From Eledone cirrhosa (taxonomy: Eukaryota): 64,000 nucleotides of DNA. Shown here in pieces: positions 37,324-37,890 of this stretch; within the stretch, counting starts at the first letter, position 1, and every line of letters begins with the position of its first letter. The notes below the pieces were generated by a model. The model was not told the origin of the DNA. It did no database searches and saw only the letters and a program-made list of their open reading frames with translations. The position numbers were made by a program, and so were the translations under genes. The DNA lies in contig OZ024740.1 of the NCBI GenBank assembly GCA_964016885.1, forward strand, positions 157,604,001 to 157,668,000, given 5' to 3'.

Positions 37324-37325
<2 letters not shown>

Positions 37326-37890
37326 AATGTAAATATGTATGTATATGTACATACATATATGTATACAGACGTACAGTAGTATGTATATATATACATACAT
37401 GCACACATATATATGCACGTATCGGTTTACCGAACATTTATTATAATGCCCGAATTACGCCGAATTACGCCGTACAGTGTTTAGGCAACCACGTCAGCTT
37501 TTTGTTCAACACTGACACAGGAACGATGTACTAGTTTCAAGCTTATTAGCTATCGTCAGCATCGTATATCTTCCTGCCAGATGGTTGAACGTCTGAAAGT
37601 ATATACTTTCCTTATGTATATTAACGGCTGAGCAGCCTAATTTGCATATCGAGTGAGTTCAGTTGGCCGGGCACACCGAAAACGATAAATGGAATAGAAT
37701 GAAACGAAATTTCATTTCTCACTCTTAGTACGGCACTTACTTAAATGTATGTATGTACGTATGTATACGTACATACATATATGTATACAGACGTACAGTA
37801 GTATGTATATATATACATACATGAACACATATATATATGCACGTATCGGTTTCCCGAACATTTATTATAATGCTCGGTTTGTTTGTTTGT
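37324..37890 (-). repeat. Diverged ~1.3-unit copy of the 494-bp retrozyme-like repeat
   Basis: Colinear similarity to the array unit; HHR at 37523-37565(-): ACGATG CTGACGA T AGCT aata AGCT T GAAA CTAG TA CATCGT. Confidence 0.85.

Follow-up and report, generated by a model that had tools for sequence, protein, structure and literature searches.

The window, by which we mean the whole 64,000-nt stretch of Eledone cirrhosa DNA that was analysed, contains a solitary insertion of a hammerhead-bearing repeat as well as an array of related units (Table 1). No credible open reading frame (ORF) is present in the unit. The solitary copy comprises 567 nt, i.e., 1.30 units of 437 nt, and carries a terminal direct repeat of 128 nt with 93% identity (37327-37452 and 37749-37876), in agreement with the original prediction of a copy of about 1.3 units ending in a direct repeat. 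Its 5' junction shares a 4-nt microhomology with the neighbouring repeat, and neither a terminal tail nor a target-site duplication was seen for this copy. It represents a partial tandem with 5' truncation, as is made by Penelope-like elements (PLEs), and is the simplest insertion form of its family. Other repeats are also present in the window. The microsatellite in which the solitary copy ends adjoins, at 37150-37240, a minus-strand segment with a B-box-like motif, which resembles a tRNA-derived SINE head. The segment at 37891-37985 (+) is a fragment of another repeat family that targets TA (1,255 candidates) and likewise has inversions and a T-rich end; fuller copies of that family (L235 and L238) carry a half-hammerhead (GAAA, a palindromic helix III and GUA), the 5' half of which is atypical and distant. 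Broken LINE-like frames, with endonuclease and reverse transcriptase (RT) motifs recognised by eye, occur at 58074-60939 (+) and 44924-45994 (+).

Table 1. Positions in the window of the solitary insertion, its component features and the array.
Feature	Position	Strand	Remarks
Solitary insertion	37324..37890	-	1.3 units of subfamily B; 5'-truncated; 3' end runs into (TA)n
5' partial unit	37746..37890	-	Source of the terminal direct repeat; unit positions ~297-437
T-rich 61-nt segment	37685..37745	-	Internal in the solitary copy; one-sided 3' tail in other insertions
Octamer-containing box	37636..37648	-	Matches the upstream element (-76 to -78) of the U6, U6atac and RNase MRP genes of the host
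TATA-like site	37599..37605	-	Spacing to the box 42 nt; +1 predicted at ~37575-37570, immediately ahead of helix I
Predicted helices extending helix I	37504..37590	-	37590-37584 with 37510-37504; 37580-37576 with 37516-37512
Type I hammerhead	37523..37565	-	Helix I 37565-37560/37528-37523; core CUGACGA 37559-37553; GAAA 37538-37535
TA/TG-rich tract within the unit	37324..37420	-	Its end is the second fixed 3' end of the family
Array, subfamily A, 494-nt unit	24510..28338	both	~3.1 units minus, inversion at 26047/26048, ~4.6 units plus, tail 28270-28338

The hammerhead of the solitary copy possesses all 11 core bases, a 6-bp helix I and a GUA site, with cleavage predicted after 37529. Helix II consists of 4 bp above a U-U mismatch at its base and helix III is weak, with 1 bp and a palindromic loop; these two features had not been noticed previously, and neither had a private G>A change at 37569, in the bulge of loop 1 that lies upstream of helix I. 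Copies of an older subfamily (L104 and L176), which have a GUU site, show a canonical C-G pair in place of the U-U mismatch at the helix II base; the mismatch is thus probably a derived state. Rfam yielded no match at the gathering score; Hammerhead_HH9 matched weakly with 18.3 bits (E = 0.033; gathering score 52), and the Rfam miRNA matches were rejected as TA-repeat noise. For the predicted helices that extend helix I, 93% of the cells are paired compared to 29-43% when the segments are slid, while the covariation check that had been suggested, carried out as a formal count on 16 copies, did not rise above shuffles (64/500). Predictions of secondary structure only place the active fold at -1.7 kcal/mol against a minimum free energy (MFE) of -8.5 kcal/mol for the monomer, and at -20.2 against -20.4 for the dimer; as modelled, the active hammerhead would be unfavourable as a monomer and near the minimum as a dimer, and would need a partner. 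Since the solitary copy has a single hammerhead and lacks a terminal tail, it is likely dead as a source.

A search of 3.0 Gb of the genome revealed at least 31,153 exact matches to the 3' half of the hammerhead (control pattern: 1) and 18,055 exact matches to a 20-mer upstream of the ribozyme (control pattern: 0). The units of the family measure 422-494 nt, those of subfamily A 466-530 nt, and they occur as solitary copies and in arrays of 2 to >13 units. The solitary copy was originally described as a diverged copy of the array in the window. It does have many substitutions and indels in comparison with the array units (80.6% identity over ~540 columns), but it belongs to a different subfamily and is not an aged offshoot of the array. 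Its best matches are dispersed copies with 88-98% identity (40 scored among 2,526 candidates), whereas those of the array are dispersed copies with 99-100% identity (40 scored among 1,593 candidates). As each thus best matches different dispersed copies, the solitary copy is, judging from these alignments, not derived from the array: it falls in subfamily B (~437 nt, older) and the array in subfamily A, the youngest. The array is itself one insertion-like structure rather than the parent of the solitary copy, which is an ordinary member of the repeat family. All four reported differences between their hammerheads, i.e., N7 U>C, loop II AACA>AAUA, a helix I G-U>A-U pair and the loss of the outermost helix I pair, were confirmed, and they are subfamily characters. 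The N7 and loop II bases of the solitary copy recur in 37 of 37 hammerhead units listed for the 29 other top-scoring loci and its helix I in 36 of 37, these loci having been picked by similarity and three of them being without a pattern match. Among position-sampled insertions, the five-site haplotype of the solitary copy was found in 14 out of 70 and that of the array in 8 out of 70. Among the sequencing runs listed as containing the family, none was an RNA run, and contigs of three runs held only known subfamily variants or gave no match. With dispersed copies that are 99-100% identical, the family appears to constitute an extensive retrozyme system that has been active recently and comprises several successive subfamilies. 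Judging from the listing of freely accessible papers on octopus hammerhead ribozymes and PLEs, none of them describes it.

It had been proposed that selection on ribozyme function confined the changes in the hammerhead to tolerated sites. Their placement is indeed non-random, with P(4 of 4) = 0.008-0.019 if about one third of the possible changes are tolerated, according to our own classification. However, divergence is no lower in the hammerhead than elsewhere in the unit, since in the suggested comparison of densities 4 of 45 positions differ inside and 23 of 218 outside the hammerhead (Fisher p = 1.0). The first 100 anchor matches on contig 1 yielded 73 independent insertions, 70 of which had enough coverage to be counted; their variants were classed by allele frequency, which separates private changes only partly from rare source variants. 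None of the 11 core columns was affected by variants common to at least four loci, as compared to 7 of the remaining 34 hammerhead columns and 38 of 162 columns outside (core versus outside, p = 0.06; 70 insertions). The shared hammerhead variants sit at N7, in loop II, at 10.1, at H17 (A or U), at 2.7 and in a single pair of helix I, 2.3/1.3, which is G-U in 32, U-G in 18, A-U in 16 and unpaired in 4 of the 70 insertions. Of the variants present in at most three loci, 5 fell in the core where 14.6 were expected (p = 0.004; 70 insertions), and core singletons numbered 5, with 7.8 expected (p = 0.21). Over the hammerhead as a whole, singletons were rarer than outside (18 versus 32 expected, p = 0.005), a deficit that is unexpected under pure decay and may be caused by rare source variants or by alignment noise outside the hammerhead. 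The core was substituted or deleted in 8 of 72 insertions. Genome-wide, A14 was changed in 154 units versus 31,153 (0.49%) and a control A in 127 versus 18,055 (0.70%; p = 0.004), in sets that differ in subfamily make-up and with a control A that lies inside the candidate promoter (see below).

These data support that selection on the ribozyme acts on source lineages and that inserted copies decay. The proposed selection, therefore, holds up for the source lineages, in which none of the 11 core columns varies, and not for the solitary copy. A core mutating at the background rate, which had been put forward as the observation that would speak against selection, is an ill-posed yardstick, as dead copies mutate in the core while source lineages keep it. 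That the solitary copy itself is under selection for ribozyme function, as was implied, seems highly improbable to us. None of its ~12 private positions (in comparison with 23 close copies) falls inside the 45-nt hammerhead, in line with such selection, but only about one would be expected there anyway; moreover, its four differences from the array are all subfamily characters, its private change at 37569 hits the loop 1 bulge, and its single hammerhead is predicted to need a partner.

Dispersal by retrotransposition, also part of the original prediction, is backed by the fixed position of the 3' ends, the scatter of the 5' ends, the inversions and the presence of a tail on one side. Among all fetched loci, 186 of the 218 3' ends fall within two 20-nt bins and are, in the suggested tabulation of start and end permutations, not permuted. 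They define two fixed ends, one at the end of the TA-rich tract of the unit and one ~60 nt further, where a T-rich tail merges into (TA)n. The 223 5' ends, 145 of which lie at inversion junctions, are spread over the whole unit, and no common upstream body was found among 78 non-inverted 5' flanks. Of 71 position-sampled loci, 45 have the tail at the end and 39 an inversion. The literature describes the same combination for PLEs (e.g., of the Neptune/Naiad type, which target TA), i.e., 5' truncation, partial tandems, an inverted 5' copy, a tail at one end, a bias for insertion into (TA)n and a type I hammerhead near the end (PMC8557442; PMC4209133), and, by analogy, a Penelope-type insertion anatomy is supported for the family. 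There are also differences: the family has no attached RT or GIY-YIG ORF between pseudo-LTRs, its tail measures ~57-65 nt whereas that of PLEs measures 30-40 nt (PMC8557442; PMC4209133), and its hammerhead is canonical whereas that of PLEs, including those described in the following, is minimal with a long helix II (PMC4209133). Judged by its sequence, i.e., with no ORF and with a canonical rather than a minimal hammerhead, the family does not qualify as an autonomous PLE.

At three loci, PLEs were observed that share their (TA)n tract with a retrozyme copy (L226:4281-7780, L227:3739-5270 and L228:3220-5670). They contain RT and GIY-YIG-like frames, minimal hammerheads of at least two types and (TA)n ends; Pfam matches to their ORFs were below the cut-off for two of five ORFs, and for three ORFs one unrelated weak match was obtained. 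A comparison of the unit with the 3' ends of these three PLEs and with two other hammerhead-bearing ends gave no sequence match above shuffles. A 2020 review states that no motif points to the element that moves animal retrozymes; the insertion anatomy of this family points to PLEs and makes the question of the mobiliser testable.

Our preferred interpretation, to which we assign a probability of roughly 80%, is that the solitary copy is one insertion, truncated at its 5' end, from a non-coding hammerhead family of high copy number that is likely a non-LTR retrozyme and is likely copied into (TA)n by PLE enzymes. At the sequence level the family shows the properties of metazoan non-LTR retrozymes, with cleavage and circles as predictions. 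Like those of coral, mussel and axolotl (Cervera and de la Pena, 2020, PMC7229834), it consists of non-coding, tandem and dispersed repeats of low GC content that lack an LTR and carry one canonical type I hammerhead per unit. It has a weak palindromic helix III in common with the axolotl HHR_Amex1 and a U-U at the base of helix II in common with HHR_Amex2, and its predicted folding resembles that of the dimer-dependent axolotl retrozymes (PMC7229834). It is distinguished from the retrozymes in that report by the TA-rich tract, the fixed 3' ends, the one-sided tail, the frequent inversions and the U6-type box. Its units (422-494 nt) are longer than the 170-400 nt given for animal retrozyme monomers and lie inside the range of 51-972 bp of a 2026 preprint (10.64898/2026.07.22.740005), which already proposes a PLE origin for retrozyme-type elements.

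That preprint, by reporting retrozymes as kin of PLE pseudo-LTRs, also lends some weight to an alternative that we consider unlikely, namely that the unit is an orphan pseudo-LTR or 3' end of an autonomous PLE, spread as a linear RNA with template jumps and without a circle. The PLE-like anatomy would suit it, and so would the period-2 and period-3 patterns in the arrays, which are broken by the 5'-most unit and offer no proof of rolling. Against it stand the lack of a common element body in the 78 non-inverted 5' flanks, the canonical hammerhead (6-bp helix I, 4-bp helix II, palindromic helix III), which is not of the minimal PLE type with a long helix II (PMC4209133), and the existence of arrays of 13 identical units.

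Copying from a cut linear monomer would halt at the cleavage site, but the bin that holds this site contains 10 of the 223 5' ends, a number close to the mean. A template longer than one cut monomer is therefore supported, i.e., a circle or an uncut linear multimer. The circular or multimeric template that was predicted thus stands as far as its length is concerned, and not by way of permuted ends. A hard 5' stop at the predicted transcription start is likewise unsupported, since the bin concerned holds 14 5' ends and the mean is ~10. The arrays of 13 identical units would suit a circle. Higher-order repeats were considered as proof of rolling-circle copying and rejected, since the regular patterns of L208 (period 3) and L219 (period 2) are interrupted by the 5'-most unit; the marker of L219 is present at only one other locus, and there as a single differing unit. 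Local duplication explains the array periodicity better, with the exception of L212, in which periods of 3 and 6 extend over 16 units. Sharing of rare variants within insertions (at 64 multi-unit loci, 232 occurred in one unit, 11 in a subset and 7 in all units) was rejected as a test for circles, as it fits a circle and a homogeneous multimer alike. At several loci an identical A14 change reappears at a distance of 1-6 units, in the old arrays L207-L214 at one of 2-6 units, and A>C looks over-represented among the A14 changes listed.

The life cycle that we propose would start with transcription of tandem source arrays, probably from a U6-like box in each unit. Two hammerheads would pair via their palindromic helix III and then cut, and released units may be ligated into circles. 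RT would use nicked (TA)n for priming at the T-rich tail, and copying past the unit boundary, either by rolling on a circle or by reading an uncut multimer, would generate 1 to >13 units. If new subfamilies arise solely from sources whose core still works, lineages would differ only at tolerated sites while copies decay.

The box in question (Table 1) has a counterpart in the host. It occurs at -76 to -78, with a TATA at -30, in five genes (L155, L156, L157, L171 and L239), of which three are U6 loci, one is the best U6atac gene and one the only RNase MRP gene. This set omits 2 further U6 copies of the clustered locus, 6 other U6 and 4 other U6atac copies in which the box is absent from this position and which are likely pseudogenes. 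As a by-product, a conserved upstream box is hereby defined for five host U6/U6atac/MRP genes. On a matrix of four genes the unit scores 16.1, a value reached by 0 of 150 shuffles. Left-out genes range from 11.5 to 22.9, the held-out MRP gene has a score of 13.8, and 532,120 flank positions contained no non-element match of at least 16. The spacing of 42 nt between box and TATA-like site is retained in 39 of 39 measurable units (48 rows, 9 of them truncated or diverged, and several from the same arrays), while the distance from the TATA-like site to the core varies (46, 38 and 31). We give about even odds to a working promoter in the unit. Should it exist, it would be inherited only through tandem or circular copying, because the predicted RNA start lies a few bases before the hammerhead.

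It is equally conceivable, with a probability of about one half, that the box is kept as an arm of an RNA hairpin or as a relic, and that the family is transcribed by read-through from host promoters. In the predicted circular fold the box indeed forms one arm of a hairpin, pairing with a downstream inverted copy. Furthermore, its spacing of 42 nt differs from that in the host genes (46-48 nt in 5 of 5), the TATA is imperfect, and the T5 and T7 runs that precede the 3' end in subfamily A should stop Pol III (subfamily B only has a T4, 3 nt past the tail end). A review (PMC7761336) also notes that retrozymes seem to lack promoters. This reading, however, accounts poorly for the matrix score of the unit, with its lack of equals among shuffles and flank positions, and for a spacing that is constant while the distance from TATA to core varies. 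The full combination of a retrozyme with its own U6-type promoter in every unit and insertion by a Penelope-type machine, based on these sequence comparisons, is a tentative proposition that we place somewhat below even odds. New in it is the upstream box of host U6-type genes in every unit, a predicted built-in promoter. If true, one retrozyme family would be tied to a named polymerase and a named mobiliser. The family makes it testable which polymerase transcribes animal retrozymes.

Hammerhead satellites with an internal promoter, as is the candidate here, have been described in other animals, i.e., newt satellite 2, with an snRNA-type promoter, and a schistosome satellite transcribed by Pol III (as cited in PMC2220036). 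The newt promoter is cited there as Pol II, whereas the box in this family matches U6, U6atac and MRP genes. No match to the box of the unit was found in the 500 nt that precede the U2 genes examined; these genes carry another element at about -60. The presence of a U2-type proximal element in the unit was rejected, as no alignment beat shuffles at p <= 0.05. Tandem snRNA clusters are present for U2 (2.2-kb period; G000:C3:307.35-307.45 Mb) and U6 (1.8-kb period; C19:31.78-31.84 Mb). A U6atac-like copy (L175, G000:C19:7.53 Mb) has a similar box just upstream, on the opposite strand and in a short inverted repeat. Letters like those flanking this copy recur at a 5' junction in L006, possibly as part of another box-bearing element.
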